Positions 1 to 10,231 of a stretch of 64,000 bases of DNA are shown here, in pieces. The stretch lies in the NCBI GenBank assembly GCA_964453785.1, contig CAYVRK010000015.1, forward strand, positions 7,142 to 71,141, in the 5' to 3' direction. Positions within the stretch are counted from its first letter, which is position 1; every line of letters starts with the position of its first letter. This DNA is from an uncultured Bacteroides sp. (GTDB taxonomy: Bacteria; Bacteroidota; Bacteroidia; Bacteroidales; GCA-2748055). The position numbers and the translations under genes were made by a program. The notes under the pieces were generated by a model. It was not told the origin of the DNA, searched no databases, and saw only the letters and a list, made by a program, of their open reading frames with translations.

Positions 1-181
1 GGCCGGTCCTTGCGCCTCTTTCTGAAACTGAGAACGATCCGAAGCCTACGAGAGCAACGCGATCACCTTTTTTCAATGCACCAGTTGTAACAGCGATAAA
101 AGCGTCAAGAGCCCTTTTGGCATCTGCTTTAGTCAAGTTGGCATCAGCAGCAATAGCATCTATTAATTGTGCTTTGTTCAT
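1..181 (-). CDS. hup: HU family DNA-binding protein (N-terminal 60 aa only; C-terminus lies beyond the window start)
   Basis: Reverse translation from the ATG at 181-179 gives [60 protein letters not shown], a textbook HU/IHF N-terminus. It is absent from the ORF track because it is truncated by the window edge. Confidence 0.85.
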
Positions 182-497
182 AATAAAATGAATTTAAGGG
201 TTAGTAAATGTTTTTTCTAAATATTTTCGCCAAATTCTATACAAATATAATTTTTTCTCAATGCCGTCCAAGAATCAGCCTATAAAAAATCGCTGAAATG
301 TTGATAAATGCTAGGTTTTTGGTGATAACCCTCTTTCAGATCCCCCTTCCTCAACCCATTTTTTGACCCTCAACACCCTCATTTCTTATTTTTCGACCAA
401 ACCGCCTGAATGGTCCGCCGATACTAGCCTACTCCTTAACATATAGAAAAACCAGCCTCCACCAATACATATTCATTACCACATTCCAGATTTTTAC

Positions 498-505
498 TAA
501 TTTTG
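498..505 (+). promoter_or_regulatory. Candidate Bacteroidota sigma-A -7 element (TAATTTTG) for tRNA-Ser
   Basis: TAATTTTG fits the TAnnTTTG -7 consensus and ends 6 nt before the mature tRNA 5' end. Confidence 0.4.
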
Positions 506-511
506 CGGCCC

Positions 512-598
512 GGAGGAATGGCAGAGTGGTCGAATGCGGCGGTCTTGAAAACCGTTGTTCGCTCGCGCGAACCGGGGGTTCGAATCCCTCTTCCTCCG
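512..598 (+). tRNA. tRNA-Ser (anticodon UGA), class II with a long variable arm
   Basis: The acceptor stem GGAGGAA/TTCCTCC pairs perfectly. The anticodon stem is GCGGT/ACCGT with loop CTTGAAA (anticodon TGA). The variable arm is GTTCGC-tcgc-GCGAAC and the T loop is GGTTCGAATCC. Discriminator is G, and no CCA is encoded. Confidence 0.93.
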
Positions 599-613
599 CA
601 AAGCATCTCAAAG

Positions 614-640
614 CCCGGACACGTAAGTGTTCGGGTTTTT
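614..640 (+). terminator. Rho-independent terminator after tRNA-Ser
   Basis: A CCCGGACAC-gtaa-GTGTTCGGG hairpin (one G:U pair) is followed by TTTTTATTT. Confidence 0.6.
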
Positions 641-785
641 ATTTGGTGTTTGCCGAACCAAACTTGTTTGAGGGAGGCAAGCAGCAAATAATAACACATT
701 GCGAACGAAGTGAGCGATGGGTTTTGAGATGATTTGCAAGCCTCCCCTCTTGGGATCACGAAGTAATTCCTCTTCAATATGAGTT

Positions 786-1085
786 TTAACCAGAGCCTTT
801 CCGATCAGCTTTCAGGCACACGTAAACATAACCCTTGTCTGCCTCGGTATGAAAAGAACTTCCCACACAACCAATATTCAAAAAGTAGTTTATTACTTCA
901 TTGGCTATCTCTCTATTTTCGACTTTGGCAATTTTGAAGTTTTCAGTGCTTAGAAAAATATCATTACCTATATTCAGATTAGATGGATCATCGGTATTGC
1001 CAACAATAAAATCTTTAAATCCATATTTGCTGTAATACATAAATGCTGAAAGCTTGGCCACCACAACTGATCTGTTGCTCCTCAT
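786..1085 (-). CDS. Hypothetical 99-aa protein, translationally coupled to the upstream 83-aa gene
   Basis: ORF track entry. Its ATG overlaps the stop of 1082..1333 by 4 nt (ATGA). I recognise no domain. Confidence 0.55.
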   Translation of the reverse strand: MRSNRSVVVAKLSAFMYYSKYGFKDFIVGNTDDPSNLNIGNDIFLSTENFKIAKVENREIANEVINYFLNIGCVGSSFHTEADKGYVYVCLKADRKGSG

Positions 1086-1333
1086 CCTTGTTGGATTTTC
1101 TTTAGTTTATAACACTCGATGCATAGAATTTCATACACATGTTCCTTTGATGGACCCTGGTCTGATATACAAATTACCTCCCAGCTCCCCGGCATATCAG
1201 CCTTCCCTCTGCAAGCCCATTCCAAGGGTTTGTTACACCTGATATTGTAATGGTTATGTGAAGGATCACTGCACTGACACCTCGCTTCAGCTTTCTTCCA
1301 GGCTTCCTGGATCAAAAATGGTCGCAACATCAT
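1082..1333 (-). CDS. Small Cys-rich protein with HNH (beta-beta-alpha-Me)-like spacing but without the canonical catalytic His
   Basis: The 83-aa product contains WKKAEARCQC...RCNKPLEW...GSWEVICISDQGP...EILCIECYK. This resembles the W-x-K-x-R...C-x-C...(W/V)E-x-HH-I...N-x-x-LC-x-x-C layout of small HNH nucleases, with HH replaced by IC. It is preceded by bipartite motif copy 1. Confidence 0.55.
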   Translation of the reverse strand: MMLRPFLIQEAWKKAEARCQCSDPSHNHYNIRCNKPLEWACRGKADMPGSWEVICISDQGPSKEHVYEILCIECYKLKKIQQG

Positions 1334-1364
1334 GGTTGATGAAATGGATTAAACACAATGAAGT

Positions 1365-1395
1365 GTTTAATCAGAATGGACACCCTTTTGTTACC
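1365..1395 (-). promoter_or_regulatory. Bipartite motif copy 1: GGTAACAAAA-N13-GATTAAAC (candidate alternative-sigma promoter)
   Basis: The minus strand reads GGTAACAAAAgggtgtccattctGATTAAAC and ends 31 nt upstream of the ATG at 1333. Confidence 0.55.
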
Positions 1396-1481
1396 CTTCC
1401 AGGGCAAAAAAATTGCATGTTGCTTGAAAAGAGTTTTTCTTACCTTTAATCCGTCAAGAAAAAAGTGCTTAAGGTTATTCC

Positions 1482-2096
1482 ATGCAAAGCTACAGCGAAG
1501 ATATTCTCATCAATGGCATCAGGAACCGTGATGATGGTGTATTTAAGTATCTCCAGGTGAAATTCCAGGATGGAATCAGGCTGATGGTACTGGAGATGGG
1601 AGGCCGACCGGAGGATGCGAAAGACGTATTCAATGAGGGACTCATTGCTCTCATCCGTTTGGTTGATAAGGAAGACTTTAAACTAACATGTAAACTTGGG
1701 ACGCTGCTGTATGCTCTATGCAATAAGATATGGAAGCAGCAGATTGAGAAACAAACCGCAGCGCGGAACTATCATTTACGAAAGCTTGATACTACTCCAA
1801 CAAAAGATTTCTCTGAAAACTATGATGAGGAATTATTCAAAGATATTTTCTGGGGTTGTTTCGAATTGCTTGATACGGTCTGCAAAGAGATCCTGAAAGG
1901 ATACCTCAAAGAAATATCCCCTATGGATATCGCTAAATCTCTTGGTTACAGCTATGGGTACGTTAGAAAGAAAAAAAGCACTTGCCATAGTTATTTGATA
2001 CAAATGATCGAGAACAACCCAGTATTTGTCAAAATTCAAAATAGTGAAAAAGAGTTAACACCTGTACAAAAAGCAATCGCAGTTGATGAAGGATGA
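1482..2096 (+). CDS. RNA polymerase sigma factor, sigma-70 family, ECF-like
   Basis: The 204-aa product has a region-2-like segment (PEDAKDVFNEGLIALIRL) and a region-4 HTH (ISPMDIAKSLGYSYGYVRKKKSTCHSYL). Its size and two-domain layout are typical of group 4 sigmas. Confidence 0.85.
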   Translation: MQSYSEDILINGIRNRDDGVFKYLQVKFQDGIRLMVLEMGGRPEDAKDVFNEGLIALIRLVDKEDFKLTCKLGTLLYALCNKIWKQQIEKQTAARNYHLRKLDTTPTKDFSENYDEELFKDIFWGCFELLDTVCKEILKGYLKEISPMDIAKSLGYSYGYVRKKKSTCHSYLIQMIENNPVFVKIQNSEKELTPVQKAIAVDEG

Positions 2097-2868
2097 TGTA
2101 GGAAATAAGCAATTATTGGCCGATTACCTTTACGGTGACCTGGAACCCGGTGATGAAATGGAATTTGAAAGAATGATTTCAGATCATCCGGAGCTGTCTG
2201 AATCCTATCACTTTCATGTCAAGGTAAGAGACTACCTGAAAGCAAAGATCCAATTGGAAGAGATGAGATCGGACCCATTGCTCGGCGAGGCGGAAAAACT
2301 GGCAGAACATGCCTTCGACGATGATGCTGAAGCTTCGGTTCCAGGTATGCTGAGAAAGAGGTTGAAATATATTCCTGCGGTGGCAGCATCAATTGCCCTT
2401 CTTTTGGTCGTACGTTTCTTTATCCCCGCAACAAATCCGGATGCCTTGTTCTCAGCTTATTATACTCCGCTTTCTGCGACCAATTTCAACCAACGGGGAG
2501 AAACGGATGTTATCTCCTCCGAATTCTCAGAAAGTATCGATCTGTTTAACCAGGGGGCATACGAACAGTCCATCCGAATTTTAAATCAGCTGGAAACGGC
2601 TCAAACTGAGCTGCCGGAAGTGGAGCTGTTTCAGGGATTAAACTATATGGGACTGGAACAGTATGGTAAAGCAAAGGATTTTCTTAATCATTATATCGAG
2701 AACAACACCCGTTTGCTCCCTGAAGCATACTGGTATCTGAGCCTTTGTTTCCTGAAAACCGGCGAATATGCAAAAAGTCAAGAATTTCTTACCCGGCTGG
2801 AAGCATATGACGGAATATATAAAAAAGACGCTCAGGTCCTCGAGCGAAAACTGCGGCGGATCAGGTAA
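2086..2868 (+). CDS. Anti-sigma-like single-pass membrane protein with an extracytoplasmic TPR-like domain
   Basis: It overlaps the sigma stop by 11 nt. The N-terminus (LLADYLYGDLEPGDEMEFERMISDHPEL) is of the anti-sigma type. There is one TM segment (IPAVAASIALLLVVRFFI) and a C-terminal part with TPR-like helices (AYEQSIRILNQL, GKAKDFLNHYIE, YAKSQEFLTRL). The start is set at ATG 2086 rather than TTG 2083. Confidence 0.7.
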   Translation: MKDDVGNKQLLADYLYGDLEPGDEMEFERMISDHPELSESYHFHVKVRDYLKAKIQLEEMRSDPLLGEAEKLAEHAFDDDAEASVPGMLRKRLKYIPAVAASIALLLVVRFFIPATNPDALFSAYYTPLSATNFNQRGETDVISSEFSESIDLFNQGAYEQSIRILNQLETAQTELPEVELFQGLNYMGLEQYGKAKDFLNHYIENNTRLLPEAYWYLSLCFLKTGEYAKSQEFLTRLEAYDGIYKKDAQVLERKLRRIR

Positions 2869-5591
2869 ATACCCATTCCGCAGATTGCCAGAATAACAAA
2901 TGAAAAATACACCCGTTTCGGGATTTTGATAAGCGGATCCGGATTGCCGGTGACCTGGTATCCCGCCCAGTAGTAAGGATGTGTATAAGAGGGAGGCGAA
3001 TTGACCAGGTATTTTTTCTTGGCCATGGAGAGTGCCTGCCCCTTTGATTTTCCGGTTTTCAGCTCCTGATAGAACCCTACCATGATCTGATGGGCTTTTA
3101 CATCTTCTACCGGCCATAATGTGTGTATCACTGAAGCGGCTCCTGCCAAGAGAAAACTCCTTGAAAGACTAAAGATCCCTTCCCCCAGCTGAAGCAGCCC
3201 TCCTCCTGTTTCACAACTGCTTAATACAACCATCGGTGAGGTCAGTACCATGGAGTTGATTTCATAGTCGTACAGGCGGTCTGAATAAACTGAATCATGA
3301 TCTGTATCAAGAAGGAAATACGGTGGGCTACCACCCTTATCATCCGCATGAGCGTGCATGGCAAGATGTATGACTACCTCATCGCTCATGTATTCCAGAA
3401 GCTCATCTTTCGACAGCACATCCTCGATACGGCTTCCTTTAACCATTCCGACTATTTCACGGACTTCAGAAAGAGCCCCCCAGAGATAAAGGGAGCTGTC
3501 TGGCCGGGTGTGTGCATAGTCAGGCACAAACGCATGGATCTTTGGAAAGGAAGATTCAGGTTTCCAGACCCTGTTCATGGTCCGGGAATTATACATATAA
3601 GTTATATCATAATCATTTAACAGGTAAGGTAATCCGGCATAGTTCAGAATCGTGTCCTTTTCATGTTGCCGGATCAGCGCATCGAAGGGTAAACTTGCAA
3701 TCTCCGCATCGGGTGCTATGATCAGGTTCCTGCCTTTAATACGTTGCTCCACCGGTTCAAATATTTGCTGATAGATCCCGTACAATGACGTTTTCAGGTT
3801 TTCGAATTGTACCTGGGATTCGGTGAAAAAATTAAACCCATGGAGATTCTGCATTATATTTTCCAGGTATATGTAAAAACTGCTATCGAGATCCCCCTGC
3901 CATATATAAAAATCCTTCCTGGAAACAACGAATGCATACAGTCTTTGTGGTCCTTCTGCTTCTTTGCCGGATATGTAATACTCCACAAGTGTTTCCCTTT
4001 TTCCCAGGTGCCGGCGAGTCCACTCAAGTGAAAATTCATTGTCAGACAAATCAAATTGTCCTATCTGGGGATGTTCCTTTTTAAGTTGTTCCATTTTCCG
4101 GCCAAAAGCCTGCCTGGAACTGAACAGATGATCCTGCCAGGCGGACAATCTTGAAGAATCAGGGATCACTTCCTGGATCTCATTCTGAATCAGGTTTGAA
4201 AAGAGGTCTATTCGCTGTTTCAGCTCCAGAACACTGGTGGCCAGCGTATCGGACAGGCTCTCAAGGTACAGCCATTCTTTCTCTCTCATCTCAAATACCA
4301 GTTCATTTGATTTTCCGGTAGCGGCCAGGATGAAGGCCTGTTCCTTCAATTTTGTGTCATGGACGAGTCCAAATTGCATGATATTCAAACGGATACCCGT
4401 GCTGAATAGATCTTTCTGACCTGAGATAAGATAAGTACGGCTTTCACCGGACAGGTAGGATCCCTGTATGAGATAGAGCACCTCAATGGCCCTGGCATTT
4501 GTTGCCAATGCTGCATCAAGGATTTCAATTTTCGTCGAATCAGGTATTGACTTGCCGGCCATGCCTTCCAGTACTTTGGTTTTTGTGCCAAGGCATTTCA
4601 GAAGGGTCAGGTCATGAAGCGATTGTTTGATTTCCGGATTTGTATAAGGGTCCCTGTCATTAAATCCGCCGGAAACCGATATCAGGGCAAGCTGGACCAT
4701 TTCAAGTGCCTGAGAGAAATTCTTCTCTTCAAGGTAAAAATTTGCCAGACGTTCATATGCGGCAGCAGTAAGAGGGTGTCTAATCCCATAGTTGTTTTTA
4801 TAATTCTGTATGGCCAGGGCTATATTTGATCTGGCCCCCTCACGGTCTCCCTGTTGGGCCATGAACAGCCCGAAGTGAAGATAAACATTGGCAAGCTGGT
4901 AATGGTCTTCCCCTGATTCCACAATCCATTGATCAATGCTTTTACCAAAATACCGGCCTGCCATCTCAGGACTATCGAGCGCCATGTAAATCCGGGCCAG
5001 GTTATAATAAACACTTCCCAGGTAGGATTGGGCCCGGGTTTCCTTAATCTGCTCACTCTCCTTCATAAGTTCCAGTGCTTCCTTAAACCGTCCAAGCCGG
5101 TAATAGACAAGTCCCTGGTTGAACTTGAGCATGGACAACTTGTTGTAATATGCCTCATCATGTACAGGCAGGGATTGAAGCAGCTTGATGGCCCTGTCAT
5201 AGTAGGAAAGTGCATCGGGATATTCCCCCAGCCAGCCATGGAGCAAAGAGAGGTTGTTATAGACACTGATCTTCAGTTGTACAGTCCCTTGGTCATAAGA
5301 ACGGGTAAGACTATCTGCTATCCGGTATTGTTCCAGGGCATCTTCAATGTAACCCATTTCATAATAGACAATACCAAGAGAGTTGCACACCAGCGCCAAA
5401 TTATAATCCGGCAGTTGATCTCCTTCATCTATAATACGTTCCAGAAGGGATCCGGATCGAACGAAGTCCCCCGCTGCCCATGCTTTCCGGTATTCAGAAT
5501 ATAACAGACGCGCCGAATCTGCCGGAATCTGACAGAGAATCTCCGGCAGGATACCCAAGCCCAGTAAAAACCACAAGAAATGCTTTTTCAT
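2832..5591 (-). CDS. Exported TPR-repeat CHAT-domain (caspase-fold) protease with a C-terminal membrane anchor
   Basis: The 919-aa product has a signal peptide (MKKHFLWFLLGLGILPEILCQ), then about 350 aa of TPR repeats. The C-terminal CHAT domain carries a His/Cys dyad context (VIHLAMHAHAD ... VVLSSCETGGG). A terminal hydrophobic helix (VYFSFVILAICGMGIYLI) is followed by RRSFRSR. Confidence 0.9.
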   Translation of the reverse strand: MKKHFLWFLLGLGILPEILCQIPADSARLLYSEYRKAWAAGDFVRSGSLLERIIDEGDQLPDYNLALVCNSLGIVYYEMGYIEDALEQYRIADSLTRSYDQGTVQLKISVYNNLSLLHGWLGEYPDALSYYDRAIKLLQSLPVHDEAYYNKLSMLKFNQGLVYYRLGRFKEALELMKESEQIKETRAQSYLGSVYYNLARIYMALDSPEMAGRYFGKSIDQWIVESGEDHYQLANVYLHFGLFMAQQGDREGARSNIALAIQNYKNNYGIRHPLTAAAYERLANFYLEEKNFSQALEMVQLALISVSGGFNDRDPYTNPEIKQSLHDLTLLKCLGTKTKVLEGMAGKSIPDSTKIEILDAALATNARAIEVLYLIQGSYLSGESRTYLISGQKDLFSTGIRLNIMQFGLVHDTKLKEQAFILAATGKSNELVFEMREKEWLYLESLSDTLATSVLELKQRIDLFSNLIQNEIQEVIPDSSRLSAWQDHLFSSRQAFGRKMEQLKKEHPQIGQFDLSDNEFSLEWTRRHLGKRETLVEYYISGKEAEGPQRLYAFVVSRKDFYIWQGDLDSSFYIYLENIMQNLHGFNFFTESQVQFENLKTSLYGIYQQIFEPVEQRIKGRNLIIAPDAEIASLPFDALIRQHEKDTILNYAGLPYLLNDYDITYMYNSRTMNRVWKPESSFPKIHAFVPDYAHTRPDSSLYLWGALSEVREIVGMVKGSRIEDVLSKDELLEYMSDEVVIHLAMHAHADDKGGSPPYFLLDTDHDSVYSDRLYDYEINSMVLTSPMVVLSSCETGGGLLQLGEGIFSLSRSFLLAGAASVIHTLWPVEDVKAHQIMVGFYQELKTGKSKGQALSMAKKKYLVNSPPSYTHPYYWAGYQVTGNPDPLIKIPKRVYFSFVILAICGMGIYLIRRSFRSRT

Positions 5592-5657
5592 CCGGTCATG
5601 TCATCAACAGACCATAAAAATATTTAAAATTTCACAGAGCCGGATGAAAAAGCATTT
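5578..5657 (-). promoter_or_regulatory. Perfect 18-bp inverted repeat with a 44-nt spacer, covering the CHAT start codon
   Basis: 5578-5595 AAATGCTTTTTCATCCGG and 5640-5657 CCGGATGAAAAAGCATTT are exact reverse complements. The first arm contains the CHAT ATG (5591-5589) and the 4 nt upstream of it. Confidence 0.5.
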
Positions 5658-5676
5658 TTCGATAGTTTCGTTAAAC

Positions 5677-5823
5677 TTATTTTTTCGGATCCCAGGGATC
5701 ATCATTACCGGGCTGGCTTCCATCGCCGTCACCACCCAGGAGAAAATTCATTTTGTTTTTTTCCAGTTTTGCATTTCTGAACCTGGCTTCCATGTCCGAA
5801 ATTAAGAATCTTGCTTTTTTCAT
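5677..5823 (-). CDS. 48-aa peptide with a double-glycine leader-like N-terminus (below the ORF-track size cut-off)
   Basis: Hand translation gives MKKARFLISDMEARFRNAKLEKNKMNFLLGG/DGDGSQPGNDDPWDPKK. The LEKNKMNFLLGG segment has hydrophobic residues at -4, -7 and -12 relative to GG. It is preceded by motif copy 2. Confidence 0.5.
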   Translation of the reverse strand: MKKARFLISDMEARFRNAKLEKNKMNFLLGGDGDGSQPGNDDPWDPKK

Positions 5824-5850
5824 TTTTTGTAGATTTTGGTGAATACTGCC

Positions 5851-5881
5851 GTTTAATCCGAAACAGTAGTAAATTGTTACC
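5851..5881 (-). promoter_or_regulatory. Bipartite motif copy 2: GGTAACAATT-N13-GATTAAAC
   Basis: The minus strand reads GGTAACAATTtactactgtttcgGATTAAAC and ends 27 nt upstream of the ATG at 5823. Confidence 0.55.
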
Positions 5882-5904
5882 TGATTGTTAAAGAAACTTC
5901 ATCT

Positions 5905-5961
5905 ATAAAAAAAGTGGTGCAACGTTCAGAAATCAAATATTTGATACTGAAGCTGCACCAC
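5905..5961 (-). terminator. Rho-independent terminator after the 54-aa ORF
   Basis: The minus strand reads GTGGTGCAGCTTCAGTATCAAATATTTGATTTCTGAACGTTGCACCAC. This gives a stem of about 20 bp with few mismatches, followed by TTTTTTTAT. Confidence 0.65.
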
Positions 5962-6025
5962 ACGACGGGGATTCCATGTTTCCCAATCCAGTTTATATTG
6001 CGCAGCAACTGATAACGGTAATTAT

Positions 6026-6190
6026 TCAAACTGATCCCTTGTTTTCCAATCCATCTAGGATTTTATTCTTGAACCGCTTCAATTCAGGAGTGATCCAGAT
6101 ATCACTCATCATAAAGATCAGTATTTCAAGGTCTTCCTGTGAAAGAGGCACCAGTTCGATTTTTCCATTTTTCTTGTCATTGCTTCTCAT
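6026..6190 (-). CDS. Hypothetical 54-aa protein (below the ORF-track size cut-off)
   Basis: Hand translation gives MRSNDKKNGKIELVPLSQEDLEILIFMMSDIWITPELKRFKNKILDGLENKGSV. The ORF is bracketed by motif copy 3 upstream and a strong terminator downstream. Confidence 0.45.
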   Translation of the reverse strand: MRSNDKKNGKIELVPLSQEDLEILIFMMSDIWITPELKRFKNKILDGLENKGSV

Positions 6191-6208
6191 ACCATTTAAT
6201 TTATACCG

Positions 6209-6239
6209 GTTTAATCAGAATTGGTCTTGAATTGTTACC
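6209..6239 (-). promoter_or_regulatory. Bipartite motif copy 3: GGTAACAATT-N13-GATTAAAC
   Basis: The minus strand reads GGTAACAATTcaagaccaattctGATTAAAC and ends 18 nt upstream of the ATG at 6190. It lies back-to-back with copy 4, 23 nt apart. Confidence 0.55.
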
Positions 6240-6262
6240 CTGTTATATAAAACCAAGTCTCA

Positions 6263-6293
6263 GGTAACAATTCTCCCTCCTTTCTGATTAAAC
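6263..6293 (+). promoter_or_regulatory. Bipartite motif copy 4: GGTAACAATT-N13-GATTAAAC
   Basis: The plus strand reads GGTAACAATTctccctcctttctGATTAAAC and ends 31 nt upstream of the ATG at 6325. Confidence 0.55.
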
Positions 6294-6324
6294 TCCAAAC
6301 TGAATTCAAAGCCAAATGGGAAAT

Positions 6325-6489
6325 ATGCGAATCTTGGAGAAAAAGATATTGAATTCTGAGAATCTCATCAGGATAGAATATCAATGTACCGTGTGCGGGA
6401 ATCATTACGATGAGAGTGCTACCAAGGGAACTGGTTCATTACGTATAACCTGCAAGGTTTGCGGTAATACACTCGTAGTTTATGTATAA
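6325..6489 (+). CDS. 54-aa zinc-ribbon protein (CxxC...CxxC; below the ORF-track size cut-off)
   Basis: Hand translation gives MRILEKKILNSENLIRIEYQCTVCGNHYDESATKGTGSLRITCKVCGNTLVVYV. It is preceded by motif copy 4 and followed 36 nt later by the pentapeptide-repeat gene. Confidence 0.55.
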   Translation: MRILEKKILNSENLIRIEYQCTVCGNHYDESATKGTGSLRITCKVCGNTLVVYV

Positions 6490-6525
6490 TCTTGTCTAGG
6501 TTCAAACTTCTGTGTACCTTCAACT

Positions 6526-7098
6526 ATGGAAGCATTCATAGAAGACAAAACATTTGAAAACATCAACTTTCAGGAAAATCCGCTGGCCAAAAGTGAGTAT
6601 GAAAATTGTGTGTTTCATCAATGTGATTTATCAAACGCAGACCTATCAAACATAGGGTTTACGGAATGTGAGTTTCATGGATGCAATCTAAGTCTGTCAA
6701 AAATCATCAAAACTGCATTTCGGGATGTACATTTCAGGGAGTGCAAAATGCTGGGGCTTCAATTTGAAAATTGCAATGAATTCGGGCTATCCTTTTCATT
6801 TGAGAAGTGCCAGCTGAATCATTCTTCATTCTACAGGACAAAAATCAAAAAGACCCAATTCAGGAATTCACAAATCCAGGAGACTGATTTTACGGAGTGC
6901 GACCTGACGGGTTCAACGTTTGATCATTGCGATCTGGGCGGGGCTACTTTTGACCACACAAATCTTGAGAATGTGGATTTCCGGACTTCAGACAACTACT
7001 CCATTGATCCCGAAATAAACCGGATAAAGAAAGCAAAATTCTCTCTGCAGGGACTTTCAGGATTATTAGATAAATATGACATCGAAATTGATAGTTGA
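6526..7098 (+). CDS. Pentapeptide-repeat protein (Qnr/MfpA-like right-handed quadrilateral beta-helix)
   Basis: The 190-aa product consists almost entirely of A(D/N)LxX-type pentapeptides (CDLSNADLSNIGFTECEFHGCNLSLSK, CDLTGSTFDHCDLGGATFDHTNLENVDF). Confidence 0.9.
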   Translation: MEAFIEDKTFENINFQENPLAKSEYENCVFHQCDLSNADLSNIGFTECEFHGCNLSLSKIIKTAFRDVHFRECKMLGLQFENCNEFGLSFSFEKCQLNHSSFYRTKIKKTQFRNSQIQETDFTECDLTGSTFDHCDLGGATFDHTNLENVDFRTSDNYSIDPEINRIKKAKFSLQGLSGLLDKYDIEIDS

Positions 7099-7227
7099 AT
7101 TTTAGAGGGAGCTAGAGTACCGGGGATGATCTACTGAGAATCCGGTGAGGGAGATATCTTGAAAACTGCTGGTCATTTCCGGTGAGTGTCCTATATTTGG
7201 TATACGAACACCTCACTTTTCAGATTG

Positions 7228-7920
7228 ATGACAAATAAAACCAAATGGATCATCCTGTTTTTTCTGATCATCGGTAGTTCTGATGCATTTAGCCAAACCC
7301 TTGAGATTTTTGGAGGTCCGAACCTCAGTGTCCTGTATAATGTCGGTCAAGACGGTCACTACGAAACCACCTACGAAAACAGAAATGGGATTAACTTGGG
7401 TATTGGTGTGGAAAATGTAAAAATCGATTGGGTCACCATGCGATTCACACTAAGCTATGATATGTATGGAGGTGAGATTCATGAAAAAGTATCCGGCCTT
7501 GCAAGTGGCTCGGCAACTGCAGCCAAATTTGAAAAGTCTGTCCTGTCTCTCGGCCTATACCCGCTCAACTTTTATTTATTCAAGCACATAGATGTCAATT
7601 TCGGGGTAGAGTTATCCAGGCGGGTATATGAATCCTTCTCCGGAACATATAGTGGATTCAGTATTATTGATAGCGGTTATTCATTTTCCAGCTACGACTT
7701 GCAGGACGAATACGAGAACCTTAGTTCTGCCTCGCAATTCGGACTCCGTGCAAGAATTGCATACGATATTCATTTGACCGGGTCGCTGGTATTATCGCCC
7801 CAATATTCCTACTACCTGGGATTATCATCTGAATTCGATTACAAAATAATAGCATATGCAAAATCCATGAGGCACTATTTCTGTATCGGAATTAAAATGA
7901 ACTTTAAAACGAACCCTTAA
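7228..7920 (+). CDS. Small outer-membrane beta-barrel (porin-family/OmpW-like) protein
   Basis: There is a signal peptide (MTNKTKWIILFFLIIGSSDAFSQ) and an alternating hydrophobic/aromatic strand pattern. The start is moved from the GTG at 7186 to ATG 7228. Confidence 0.7.
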   Translation: MTNKTKWIILFFLIIGSSDAFSQTLEIFGGPNLSVLYNVGQDGHYETTYENRNGINLGIGVENVKIDWVTMRFTLSYDMYGGEIHEKVSGLASGSATAAKFEKSVLSLGLYPLNFYLFKHIDVNFGVELSRRVYESFSGTYSGFSIIDSGYSFSSYDLQDEYENLSSASQFGLRARIAYDIHLTGSLVLSPQYSYYLGLSSEFDYKIIAYAKSMRHYFCIGIKMNFKTNP

Positions 7921-8104
7921 AACAATTTTCATCATAAAATAACCTGTGGGAGAATATCAATACTGCCGATCAGTCAGAAATGACGATGGCTGAAAGGGAG
8001 CAACGGGGATATTTCACTTCCATGGAACAGTTGAAGGGAATTGGGATCAATTTATTCTCTATGGCATAGAACGCAACCAAAATGCCGGGTTTTGTATCTT
8101 AGAG

Positions 8105-9364
8105 ATGGACCCAAAACAACACCCCATGAAACACTGTGCCACCTTGTTTCTGTTCATACTCATCCCATGGTGTGGGATGATCTCCTGTGAAAAAGATGAC
8201 CCTGTTGACAAAGAACCACAGAAAATAGCCCTTCACCATAAATCGACCGAGATCATTAAAGCCGATCAGGCATTTGGTTTCGAACTGTTCAGGGAGGCAA
8301 TCAGCCTGTGTGACGAGGAGAACATCATGATCTCTCCTCTAAGTGTGGCCTATGCACTGGGGATGACTTACAACGGAGCAGCCGGAACCACGCTGGAAGC
8401 ATTCAATGAAGTCCTGCATTTCGGCGAACTCACCACCCGGGAAGTCAATGAGAGCTACAAGGACCTGATGGACCAACTGGTTCACCTGGACGACCGGGTG
8501 TTGTTTTCAATGGCCAACAGCATCTGGTACCGGCTGGGATATCAGGTATTGTCAGAATTCAAACAAACCAACGAAGACTATTTTGATGCCGGGGTAGAAG
8601 AGATAGATTTCAGTGACCCGGAAACCTTGGAGGTGATCAACCAGTGGATAGAGAACAACACCAACGGCAAAATCAAAGATATGCTTGATTACATCCCTTC
8701 GGATGCGGTCATGTACCTGATCAATGCCATCTATTTCAATGCGCAGTGGAAATATGAGTTTGTGAAGGAGGAAACCTATGAAGGAGATTTCAGGATGGCA
8801 GATGGCTCTCTTTATCCGGCTGATTTCATGCGCGTATCGGGCAATTTTGCCTTTACAACAAACGAAGCCTTCTCGGCTGTTGAACTTCCTTATGGAGACA
8901 GCACCTTCAGCATGGTGATCCTGCTCCCTTCGGGTGAGATTAAAGTATCAGATCTGGTCGCCCAACTGGATGAATCCCACTGGGATTCCTGGTTCGACAA
9001 TACCACCTGCACGGGAATGCAGATCGATCTGCCGAAATTCAAATACGGGTTTAAGGGCCTGTTGAACGATCCGCTGATCAACCTGGGTCTTGGAGATGCT
9101 TTCTCGGGCCAGGCAGATTTCACCAGGATCAACCCGGAGGGAAATATCTTTATTTCAAGGGTCATTCACCAGACCTTTATCGATGTGCAGGAAGAGGGCA
9201 CCGAAGCTGCTGCAGCCACCATTGTGGAGATGAGATATAACAGCGCAGAAGGAGGCAGTCCCATCTTCTTCAAAGTGGACAAACCTTTCCTCTACCTTAT
9301 TAAAGAAAACTCCACCGGAGCCCTTATGTTTATGGGAAAGGTGGGGAAGCCCGAATACGATTAG
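8105..9364 (+). CDS. Serpin family protease inhibitor, probably a lipoprotein
   Basis: The product shows SPLSVAYALGMTYNGAAGTT, NAIYFNAQWKYEF and an inhibitory-type hinge/reactive-centre loop (QEEGTEAAAATIVEMRYNS). The C-terminus is FLYLIKENSTGALMFMGKV and the N-terminus has a lipobox-like GMISC. Confidence 0.9.
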   Translation: MDPKQHPMKHCATLFLFILIPWCGMISCEKDDPVDKEPQKIALHHKSTEIIKADQAFGFELFREAISLCDEENIMISPLSVAYALGMTYNGAAGTTLEAFNEVLHFGELTTREVNESYKDLMDQLVHLDDRVLFSMANSIWYRLGYQVLSEFKQTNEDYFDAGVEEIDFSDPETLEVINQWIENNTNGKIKDMLDYIPSDAVMYLINAIYFNAQWKYEFVKEETYEGDFRMADGSLYPADFMRVSGNFAFTTNEAFSAVELPYGDSTFSMVILLPSGEIKVSDLVAQLDESHWDSWFDNTTCTGMQIDLPKFKYGFKGLLNDPLINLGLGDAFSGQADFTRINPEGNIFISRVIHQTFIDVQEEGTEAAAATIVEMRYNSAEGGSPIFFKVDKPFLYLIKENSTGALMFMGKVGKPEYD

Positions 9365-9442: not shown

Positions 9443-10231
9443 ATGGTAAAGCAGGATAATTATACGGAATCCATCTCAAAACTGAACAAACTGAAGGCTG
9501 GAACAACAGTGAATCTGGTGTTGAGCGGAGGGGGTGAAAAAGGGATTGCCCATGTGGCACTGCTTGAAAAGCTGGAAGACCTGCAGATTAAAATCAATGC
9601 CATATCGGCAACCAGTGCCGGTTCACTGGTTGGCGCCATGTATGCTTCAGGAGTCAGACCCGGGGAAATCATCGAAATCTTTACAGAAACTCCGCTTTTC
9701 AGGTACTCCTGGCTTAACCCCCTCAATTCAGGAATATTCAAATCTGAAAAGTACCAGGTATATCTGAAGGATCTGGTAAGAGACAGCTTTGAGAGACTTG
9801 ATATTCCCATGTTCATATGCGCCACCAATATGGAAGACGGGGAGAGCCACTATTTCCACCAGGGCCAGTTGCTCAAACCTTTGATCGCATCGTGTGCTGT
9901 ACCCGGTATTTTTTCTCCGGTTGAAATCGACGGGAAGCTCTATTCGGATGGCGGGGTCATGGATAATTTCCCTGTTTTCCCGTTCCGGGATGATCCTTTA
10001 CCGGTCATCGGAAGCTATGTGGTTGTACCCAAAATCGTTGGGAAAAAGGATTTGGATAATCCCATTAAAGTAACCAGCCGGTCGGCCACCCTGATGGGAT
10101 ATGCAGTGAACCGTTCCAAATTCTTTGACACCTATTTGACGGTTGTTCACCAGATCCGGGATTTCGGAATATTCGATCAGAAGCACGGGCACCAGATCTA
10201 TGACAAGGCCCGGCAGGAGTTGTTCGGCTAG
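9443..10231 (+). CDS. Patatin-like phospholipase
   Basis: It has an oxyanion GGGEKG motif, a nucleophile elbow (ATSAGS, the GxSxG position) and a catalytic DGG (YSDGGVMDNFP). Confidence 0.88.
   Translation: MVKQDNYTESISKLNKLKAGTTVNLVLSGGGEKGIAHVALLEKLEDLQIKINAISATSAGSLVGAMYASGVRPGEIIEIFTETPLFRYSWLNPLNSGIFKSEKYQVYLKDLVRDSFERLDIPMFICATNMEDGESHYFHQGQLLKPLIASCAVPGIFSPVEIDGKLYSDGGVMDNFPVFPFRDDPLPVIGSYVVVPKIVGKKDLDNPIKVTSRSATLMGYAVNRSKFFDTYLTVVHQIRDFGIFDQKHGHQIYDKARQELFG

Follow-up and report, generated by a model that had tools for sequence, protein, structure and literature searches.

In a 64,000-nucleotide (nt) stretch of DNA from an uncultured Bacteroides sp. (contig CAYVRK010000015.1, positions 7,142 to 71,141; the whole stretch is denoted here as the window), four copies of a bipartite motif lie around a gene, at 1482-2096, for a sigma factor of the extracytoplasmic function (ECF) type. 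The explanation that best accounts for these four sites, with a probability estimated at about 0.78 from sequence comparison, is that they are alternative-sigma promoters read by RNA polymerase carrying this sigma factor. The -35 box would be GGTAACAA and the -10 region TTCnGATTAAAC, with a core of the form GTAACA-N17-ATnnAAC, and transcription would start some 5-8 nt after GATTAAAC. The sites and the sigma gene belong to a cassette that many uncultured Bacteroidales share and that had not been described before: an ECF sigma module together with the promoters that it would target, new in its split association of a periplasmic TPR-CHAT protease with a peptide that has a double-glycine (GG) leader. 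Sigma-dependent promoters had been proposed in a first-pass annotation, and that proposal, taken as a whole, is supported by comparison with about 100 related loci, all carried by uncultured metagenome-assembled genomes (MAGs); from the linkage of the motif to the cassette we infer that it is this particular sigma factor that reads it.

The motif in the window and in related loci

A pattern search of the window for GGTAACAAWW-N13-GATTAAAC, in which up to three mismatches were permitted, returned four matches, all of them exact, while dinucleotide-preserving shuffles gave a mean of 0.19 matches and none of 100 shuffles reached four. In the rest of the 64 kb the same search detected no degraded copy, and two looser patterns (GTAAC-N17..19-WTWAA and GGTAACA-N13-Y-N3-ATWAA) led to the same four sites only. 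The four copies are thus found where the first-pass annotation had placed them (Table 1), and its impression that the window holds no other was correct. Its description of nearly invariant boxes around a spacer fixed in length only also agrees with an alignment of the four sites with 50-nt flanks, in which identity is limited to the two boxes and to a TTC immediately 5' of the second box. The gaps it had noted between motif and start codon hold for motifs 1 to 3 (31, 27 and 18 nt), and the 31 nt given for the zinc-ribbon gene proves to be the distance to its second ATG, the first lying at 22 nt. Motif 1 is directed at a pair of open reading frames (ORFs) of 83 and 99 codons, with the sigma ATG 87 nt away on the opposite side, and motifs 3 and 4 are back-to-back and divergent, with 23 nt between their -35 boxes. 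The arrangement of motif 4 recurs in locus L042 with a homologue of the zinc-ribbon protein, and in L018 a motif copy precedes a sequence that tblastn matched to this family at 39% identity. An Rfam scan of positions 1-9000 (E values up to 1) yielded the tRNA and noise, with no family at the motif sites. A reading of the sites as RNA structures was rejected. A scan for generic sigma-70 promoters and terminators, uninformative for Bacteroidota, stayed at shuffle level.

The protein encoded at 1482-2096 has homologues in 197 protein clusters, mostly of about 195 residues (range 195-204), and those clusters that bear names are sigma-70 family factors from Bacteroidales/Bacteroidia MAGs. Neither gene order nor the placement of the motif changes in the contigs of homologues with 79%, 74% and 65% identity. 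A metagenome scan with a sigma alignment added 80 loci, which form clade A (60-86% identity) and clade B (42-48%).

In 610 kb of sigma-anchored DNA from these loci, the relaxed pattern GGTAACA-N13-Y-N3-ATWAA occurs at 80 sites, compared with 0.3 in shuffles. All 80 fall into two zones: one is on the opposite strand, 60-520 nt upstream of the sigma gene, and the other lies 3.8-6.3 kb downstream of it, at the end of the cassette where the peptide and CHAT genes are found. No such site occurs in the remaining flanks out to 8 kb. At the peptide end, the motif is present in every locus that reaches the peptide region (11/11 in clade A and 12/12 in clade B, hence 23/23), while at the sigma end motif 1 has a counterpart of the same position and orientation in L001, L007 and 28 of 35 clade B loci. 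The link was also recovered by searches that made no use of the motif: the most widely shared 8-mer in clade B, sought unseeded, was GGTAACAA (37 of 39 loci), and when GG-peptide genes were picked only by a protein pattern and by their position before an ORF of at least 700 codons, 24 of the 25 distinct genes had the motif within 100 nt upstream, the remaining one carrying a variant.

The geometry of the sites is that of a promoter. In about 30 loci, the peptide ATG lies 24-36 nt downstream of the motif, and when 24 peptide upstream regions of both clades were aligned, GTAACA and AT..AAC were invariant, with an ungapped 17 nt between them and variable flanks; the only other invariant columns were the ATG and two A's of an A-rich leader, and two nearly invariant T's precede the second box. 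The core that is invariant across the two sigma clades is therefore GTAACA-N17-ATnnAAC; in clade A the spacing of GTAACA-N17-ATTAAA is kept in 20 of 20 cases, and in clade B N17 is found in 32 of 46. None of the 73 unique sites falls within an ORF of 150 codons or more, and the median distance to the start of the next same-strand ORF downstream is 82 nt, compared with 177 nt when the other direction is considered. A T-rich tract (ATTTTTT) located some 5-25 nt before the -35 box is also seen in most peptide promoters of clade A and may be UP-element-like.

These features bear on the alternative that the copies are remnants of repetitive extragenic palindromic (REP) elements or of miniature inverted-repeat transposable elements (MITEs), a recombination site, or inverted repeats flanking an invertible segment. 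Motifs 3 and 4 do form an inverted pair, and the region that holds them is island-like, with a GC content of 42.6% in positions 1-7200 against 49.4% in 7201-64000, and next to a tRNA-Ser gene. However, the similarity stops at the two boxes, most loci have their sites in direct orientation, there are just two to four copies per locus, each before a gene start, and no recombinase is conserved in the cassette, so that this alternative is barely credible; on the same grounds, the invertible-element and REP readings were rejected. What is conserved in these intergenic, ORF-facing copies is the pair of boxes, the length of the spacer and the short distance to the peptide ATG, which supports the earlier view of them as promoter-like and not as REP or MITE elements.

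The sigma factor, the control of its gene and the probable reader of the motif

Attribution of the motif to the sigma factor depends in the first place on the identity of the protein. Its matches fall under the curated cut-offs of both Pfam (Sigma70_r2, E 0.011, 16 bits against a cut-off of 24) and TIGRFAM (TIGR02937, E 2.2e-9, 37.2 bits against 42.9), yet a profile built from 14 members of the family aligns with solved ECF sigma factors over both domains, among them SigW (5wuq, E 1.7e-6), whose residues 9-182 align with profile positions 10-174; sigma-E and AlgU-type chains were matched as well. By these comparisons the protein is ECF-like, a divergent member of the family, and its earlier assignment as an ECF-type factor is maintained.

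The distribution of sequence differences between the two clades is of interest here. The -35 box is identical in both, and so is the recognition helix of sigma-4 (YGYVRKKKS), which is invariant. In contrast, 29 of 31 clade A sites have CTGATTAAAC as their -10 box where clade B has CCTATTAAAC, CTAATTAAAC or CCTATAAAAC, and sigma-2 differs substantially between the clades. This apparent co-variation of sigma domains and promoter boxes is soft evidence that the one reads the other.

As for the sigma gene itself, no forward-facing copy of the motif was found within 300 nt upstream of it in any of 74 loci, and in most of these a canonical Bacteroidota -7 box, TAnnTTTG, lies 36-49 nt before the sigma ATG; in the window its place is taken by TACCTTTA, which departs from TAnnTTTG by one mismatch. 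The absence of a forward-facing motif, together with the presence of a housekeeping box instead, indicates that the sigma operon is not autoregulated, in line with the first-pass remark that autoregulation was not evident. In clade B, the window, L001 and L007, a motif copy is set back-to-back with this housekeeping promoter and points the opposite way. Because the motif sites lack TAnnTTTG while the box is present before the sigma gene, the motif would not be a housekeeping promoter. A box of the same type, TAATTTTG, stands at 498-505, as had been noted.

The motif also occurs outside the cassette. When 185,579 species genomes were scanned for GGTAACAA-N15-GATTAAAC, at least 120 stretches were obtained, the copy numbers per genome being lower bounds. 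Genuine sites were told from chance matches by the extended -10 signature TTCnGATTAAAC and by context. About half of the matches listed were single chance matches, found in unrelated phyla, with random spacers and inside genes; the TTCnGATTAAAC-bearing sites among the matches listed came from Bacteroidales/Bacteroidota MAGs, save four that looked like chance, and some of them were cassettes, whereas others were orphan copies, lacking a sigma gene within 4 kb. Thus, the MAG JAGLOO01, whose cassette is L005, has orphan copies on four more contigs (L017, L066, L083 and L126), and at least four MAGs with orphan copies (JAGLOO01, CAZIAU01, CAZWUB01 and PLNF01) also yielded a cassette, which implies that the regulon is not confined to the cassette. 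The first-pass notion of a private regulon within 5 kb stands, therefore, as regards linkage, which holds in 23 of 23 testable loci, but not as regards exclusiveness, given the orphan copies on other contigs of relatives' MAGs.

In two unrelated MAGs, an orphan motif precedes a gene whose product combines a Peptidase_S74 (endosialidase chaperone) domain with a C-terminal sorting domain of the type IX secretion system (L017 5588-6652, minus strand; L039 2835-4109, plus strand), and such proteins are candidates for recurrent regulon members outside the cassette. Other genes behind orphan copies encode CarboxypepD_reg-like proteins, PAS-rich sensor proteins and a LuxR-type helix-turn-helix protein. 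At five orphan sites (L020, L023, L047, L058 and L103), a palindromic spacer, ATTGGnnCCAAT, separates the boxes and may be the binding site of a second regulator overlapping the promoter.

The orphan copies raise the question of whether the motif could be the promoter of another alternative sigma factor encoded elsewhere, the cassette being merely one member of its regulon. Copies with the full extended signature do occur on contigs without the sigma gene, as on the four JAGLOO01 contigs, and the cassette sigma gene itself lacks the motif. Nevertheless, motif and sigma gene occur together in all 23 testable loci, in clades that share just 42-48% sigma identity, with none in the flanks; the four orphan-bearing MAGs also have the cassette; and the -10 variants follow the sigma clade. 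A sigma factor encoded elsewhere is consequently regarded as unlikely.

A different possibility is that the motif is the operator of a transcription factor, either a small protein of the cassette or an unlinked regulator, with transcription carried out by the housekeeping sigma factor. The 54-residue and zinc-ribbon proteins have no assigned function and could be such a factor, and palindromes exist at some sites: the ATTGGnnCCAAT spacers just mentioned, and a perfect palindrome, GATTAAACAC-N6-GTGTTTAATC at 1346-1372, that overlaps the -10 box of motif 1 (it is missing from the orthologous sites of L001 and L007). Against this, the two boxes are dissimilar and not repeats of each other, they keep one spacing, one orientation and a short, constant distance to the downstream gene, no TAnnTTTG box accompanies them although this box is plainly conserved at the sigma gene, and the motif is found in all cassettes while the small proteins are not. 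An operator thus appears decidedly improbable.

Comparison with canonical ECF systems speaks on both sides of the sigma-promoter reading. The general layout of ECF promoters, an AAC-containing -35 box followed by a rigid spacer (PMC6061681), is found here too. As in the promoters of E. coli sigma-E and B. subtilis sigma-W/X/M, the sites are bipartite, with a -35 box of the form G-G/T-[T/A]-AAC; the distance from AAC to the -10 element, about 18 nt, is comparable to that of sigma-E, and a small regulon is likewise shared, as a co-encoded membrane anti-sigma factor would be. Other points weigh against the reading. With its AT-rich sequence (ATTAAAC, which follows a TTC), the -10 box is unlike the common CGT/GTC type; the sigma protein, as described above, scores under the Pfam and TIGRFAM cut-offs; autoregulation, a usual hallmark of ECF factors, is missing at the sigma gene, which has the TAnnTTTG box in its place; the putative anti-sigma factor obtains no significant profile support; and the good copies on other contigs of cassette-bearing MAGs make an unlinked regulator formally possible.

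Genes of the cassette and a candidate circuit

The features of the window that concern the cassette are collected in Table 1. Relatives keep the sigma gene, a membrane-bound, anti-sigma-like TPR protein, a convergent gene for a periplasmic TPR-CHAT protease, the GG-leader peptide and, with it, small ORFs; some cassettes lack small proteins, but the motif is present in all testable ones. In clade B, the anti-sigma-like TPR protein is longer, the convergent TPR-CHAT gene and the GG-leader peptide are found again, and a gene for a soluble histidine kinase is added, divergent from the sigma gene. The clade B motif beside the sigma gene faces this gene, whose product has HisKA and HATPase_c domains, across a leader of about 150 nt (L201 6488-7798, L200 6544-7683 and L205 6356-7585, all on the minus strand). 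These cassettes contain no response regulator. Neither cas genes nor those of a cyclic-oligonucleotide-based antiphage signalling system (CBASS) were found in the cassette neighbourhoods, and PADLOC made no defence-system assignment, returning only weak CHAT and TPR matches.

Table 1. Motif sites, genes and other features around the cassette (positions in the window)
Feature	Position	Strand	Remarks
tRNA-Ser	512-599		housekeeping box TAATTTTG in front, at 498-505
Two-gene unit behind motif 1	786-1333	-	83-aa Cys/His-rich protein (1082-1333) and 99-aa protein (786-1085), 4-nt overlap
Motif 1, GGTAACAAAA-N13-GATTAAAC	1365-1395	-	exact match; 31 nt to ATG (1333) of the 83-aa ORF
TACCTTTA, one-mismatch TAnnTTTG	1441-1448	+	probably the promoter that serves the sigma/anti-sigma operon
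Divergent ECF-type (group IV) sigma-70 family sigma factor, 204 aa	1482-2096	+	sub-threshold family matches and profile match
Anti-sigma-like membrane protein, 261 aa	2083-2868	+	overlaps the end of the sigma gene; TPR matches
TPR-CHAT caspase-like protease, 919 aa	2832-5591	-	CHAT, E 6.8e-42; TPR_12, E 4.6e-26
GG-leader peptide, 48 aa	5677-5823	-	leader ...KMNFLLGG, then core DGDGSQPGNDDPWDPKK; weak TIGR04149 match, E 0.0077
Motif 2	5851-5881	-	exact match; 27 nt to ATG (5823) of the GG-leader peptide gene
Conserved small protein, 54 aa	6026-6190	-	no Pfam, NCBIfam or PADLOC match
Motif 3	6209-6239	-	exact match; 18 nt to ATG (6190) of the 54-aa ORF
Motif 4	6263-6293	+	exact match; 22 nt to first ATG (6316) and 31 nt to second ATG (6325) of the zinc-ribbon gene
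Zinc-ribbon protein (CxxC...CxxC), 57 aa	6316-6489	+	Zn_ribbon_8, E 2e-4; homologues behind the motif in L042 and L018
Pentapeptide-repeat gene	6526-7098		36 nt after the zinc-ribbon ORF; may be co-transcribed with it

The gene that overlaps the end of the sigma gene encodes a protein predicted to consist of a short cytoplasmic N-terminus, one transmembrane helix and a periplasmic, C-terminal TPR domain. Its position, helix and TPR domain are kept in both clades, and its N-terminus, of the LADYLYGDL type, gave a weak match to NF052375 ('anti-sigma', E 0.03), while a profile of the N-terminus found no anti-sigma match in the PDB. The protein is considered here a putative anti-sigma factor.

The convergent gene encodes a TPR-CHAT protein that is predicted to be extracytoplasmic, as an N-terminal signal peptide and a C-terminal transmembrane anchor can be read from its sequence. 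Its His-Cys dyad (H746/C793) is invariant in five aligned clade A homologues, and its CHAT domain weakly matches PDB chain 8rot_B (E 7e-4), a 991-residue 'CHAT domain-containing protein' that, from its length, we take to be DdvA. The genes for the anti-sigma-like and TPR-CHAT proteins are arranged tail-to-tail and overlap by 37 nt (2832-2868 in the window, 11369-11405 in L001) or, in the clade B locus L201, by 43 nt (9782-9824), an overlap that is kept in both clades. As a consequence, transcripts that start at the motif and read through the CHAT gene would enter the anti-sigma/sigma operon in antisense.

The GG-leader peptide belongs to a family found in at least 25 loci of both clades, always immediately upstream of the CHAT gene. 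Its match to TIGR04149 (16.1 bits) stays under the cut-off of 25, and a protein search with the peptide gave only three clusters, because the query is very short. A public protein collection has the window peptide as a 38-residue product starting from an internal Met (P0124); the form that is conserved in relatives has 45-48 residues and starts from the upstream ATG, which in the window is the one 27 nt from the motif.

With regard to the remaining small proteins, the 54-residue family (..LIYMxSDxWITPELKRFK..) is conserved at the amino-acid level and lies downstream of a motif copy in more than 20 loci. The 83- and 99-residue proteins, which match no Pfam or NCBIfam family, are both conserved in L001 and L002, and the former also in L007; a protein search with the 83-residue ORF gave only two clusters, and an AlphaFold2 model built from a three-sequence alignment was of low confidence (pLDDT 58). 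Each of the peptide, 54-residue, 83-residue and zinc-ribbon families shows a conserved amino-acid sequence from locus to locus, and on this comparative evidence the small ORFs are real genes.

These observations can be integrated into a circuit. The sigma/anti-sigma operon would be transcribed from an ordinary Bacteroidota housekeeping promoter of the TAnnTTTG type, and the co-translated, anti-sigma-like TPR protein would hold the sigma factor at the inner membrane, control being post-translational. An extracytoplasmic signal would then inactivate the anti-sigma factor, most likely through cleavage by the periplasmic, membrane-anchored TPR-CHAT protease, so that sigma release would involve proteolysis. 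The freed sigma factor would fire four units: the 83-/99-residue pair, the GG-leader peptide with the TPR-CHAT gene (which motif 2 probably also drives), the 54-residue protein and the zinc-ribbon protein. In relatives, it would probably also fire a few genes elsewhere in the genome. With the peptide and probably the CHAT gene under a sigma-dependent promoter, the circuit would act back on itself in a feed-forward manner, and the CHAT protease or the peptide may have a role in signalling.

Relation to known systems and genomic setting

One of the two closest parallels is the DdvS/DdvA pair of Myxococcus xanthus (PMC6061681, PMC11506125), which, like the cassette as proposed, comprises an ECF sigma factor, a single-pass membrane anti-sigma factor and a periplasmic TPR-CHAT module, and in which neighbouring genes are driven by a few sigma-dependent promoters, the model being one of CHAT-triggered regulated proteolysis. 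However, in DdvA the anti-sigma factor itself carries the TPR-CHAT part as its periplasmic domain, whereas here two separate, convergent genes (261 and 919 codons in the window) are found in all loci, the TPR-CHAT protein having its own signal peptide and C-terminal anchor and the anti-sigma-like protein its own small TPR domain. The zinc-binding CHCC anti-sigma domain of the DdvA type is not found here, the cytoplasmic N-terminus of the window protein having no Cys; the His-Cys dyad, described as incomplete in DdvA, is intact; DdvS is expressed from its own promoter, unlike the sigma factor of the cassette; and the DdvS regulon is a CBASS/CRISPR island, in contrast to the small proteins and GG-leader peptide described above. 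DdvA-like proteins have been reported by the authors who described DdvA only in Myxococcota and in a single species of Comamonas (PMC6061681, PMC11506125).

A second parallel is the type III-E Craspase (PMC9825189, PMC10028731), in which Csx29, a TPR-CHAT protein, cleaves the RpoE-binding Csx30, so that a TPR-CHAT protease is again coupled, genetically and in function, to an ECF-type sigma factor. Craspase, though, is cytoplasmic, RNA-guided and CRISPR-associated, while the cassette has no CRISPR/cas genes, and both its protease and the sensor domain of its anti-sigma factor are predicted to be extracytoplasmic. The cassette therefore resembles DdvS/DdvA and Craspase in logic and is a member of neither. 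In the literature library that was searched, 'CHAT domain' and 'ECF sigma' occur together only in papers on DdvA/DdvS or Craspase-Csx30-RpoE, the two CHAT-sigma couplings characterised to date, and the main text of the ECF reclassification paper makes no mention of CHAT. If the proposal holds, a third, split and periplasmic form of CHAT-sigma coupling would broaden the idea of caspase-like CHAT proteases as triggers of sigma release.

The GG-leader peptides of Bacteroidota grouped in TIGR04149, precursors of radical-SAM-modified RiPPs (peptides made by ribosomes and altered after translation), share with the cassette peptide a helix-like L..E.L...GG leader end and a short core, which here is an acidic, Gly- and Pro-rich 15-20-mer. 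Unlike them, the cassette peptide scores under the family cut-off, and neither a radical-SAM or other modifying enzyme nor a C39-ABC exporter is encoded in the cassette. An extension of the circuit that gives the peptide a central part is that the cassette forms a self-contained, peptide-gated ECF circuit, in which the exported GG peptide or a related external cue would be sensed by the TPR modules, the CHAT protein would cleave the TPR anti-sigma factor in trans, as its site-1 protease, and sigma release would close a positive-feedback, autoinducer- or quorum-sensing-like loop. This extension is considered doubtful; if true, it would represent a 'split DdvA' architecture and a first candidate for ECF-sigma peptide signalling in Bacteroidota.

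The lack of a target promoter at the sigma gene is known from non-autoregulated ECF groups such as ECF32 and ECF203 (PMC7826278). Those groups are controlled transcriptionally by other regulators, whereas in the cassette an anti-sigma-like partner is still co-encoded, and in clade B the target promoter stands back-to-back with the housekeeping promoter of the sigma gene, unlike in ECF32 and ECF203. In such groups, as here, the usual search upstream of the sigma gene misses the target motifs; ECF regulons being usually predicted from autoregulated promoters, this sigma family would have been overlooked, and it is comparative genomics that gives a clean target motif. Uncultured Bacteroidales in metagenomes of sediment, wetland and other environments widely carry this compact module, in which an ECF sigma factor and its putative anti-sigma partner are combined with a separate extracytoplasmic TPR-CHAT protease and with a GG-leader peptide. 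Four short promoters, a sigma factor of 200 residues and a peptide are small enough for direct study in a heterologous Bacteroidota host, and could serve as orthogonal expression parts.

The genes that flank orthologous cassettes vary between loci, which, together with the low GC content and the adjacency to tRNA-Ser, suggests that the cassette is island-like and possibly a horizontally moved module. Just past it in the window, an ORF of 419 codons (8105-9364, plus strand) has a C-terminus that looks serpin-like by eye.

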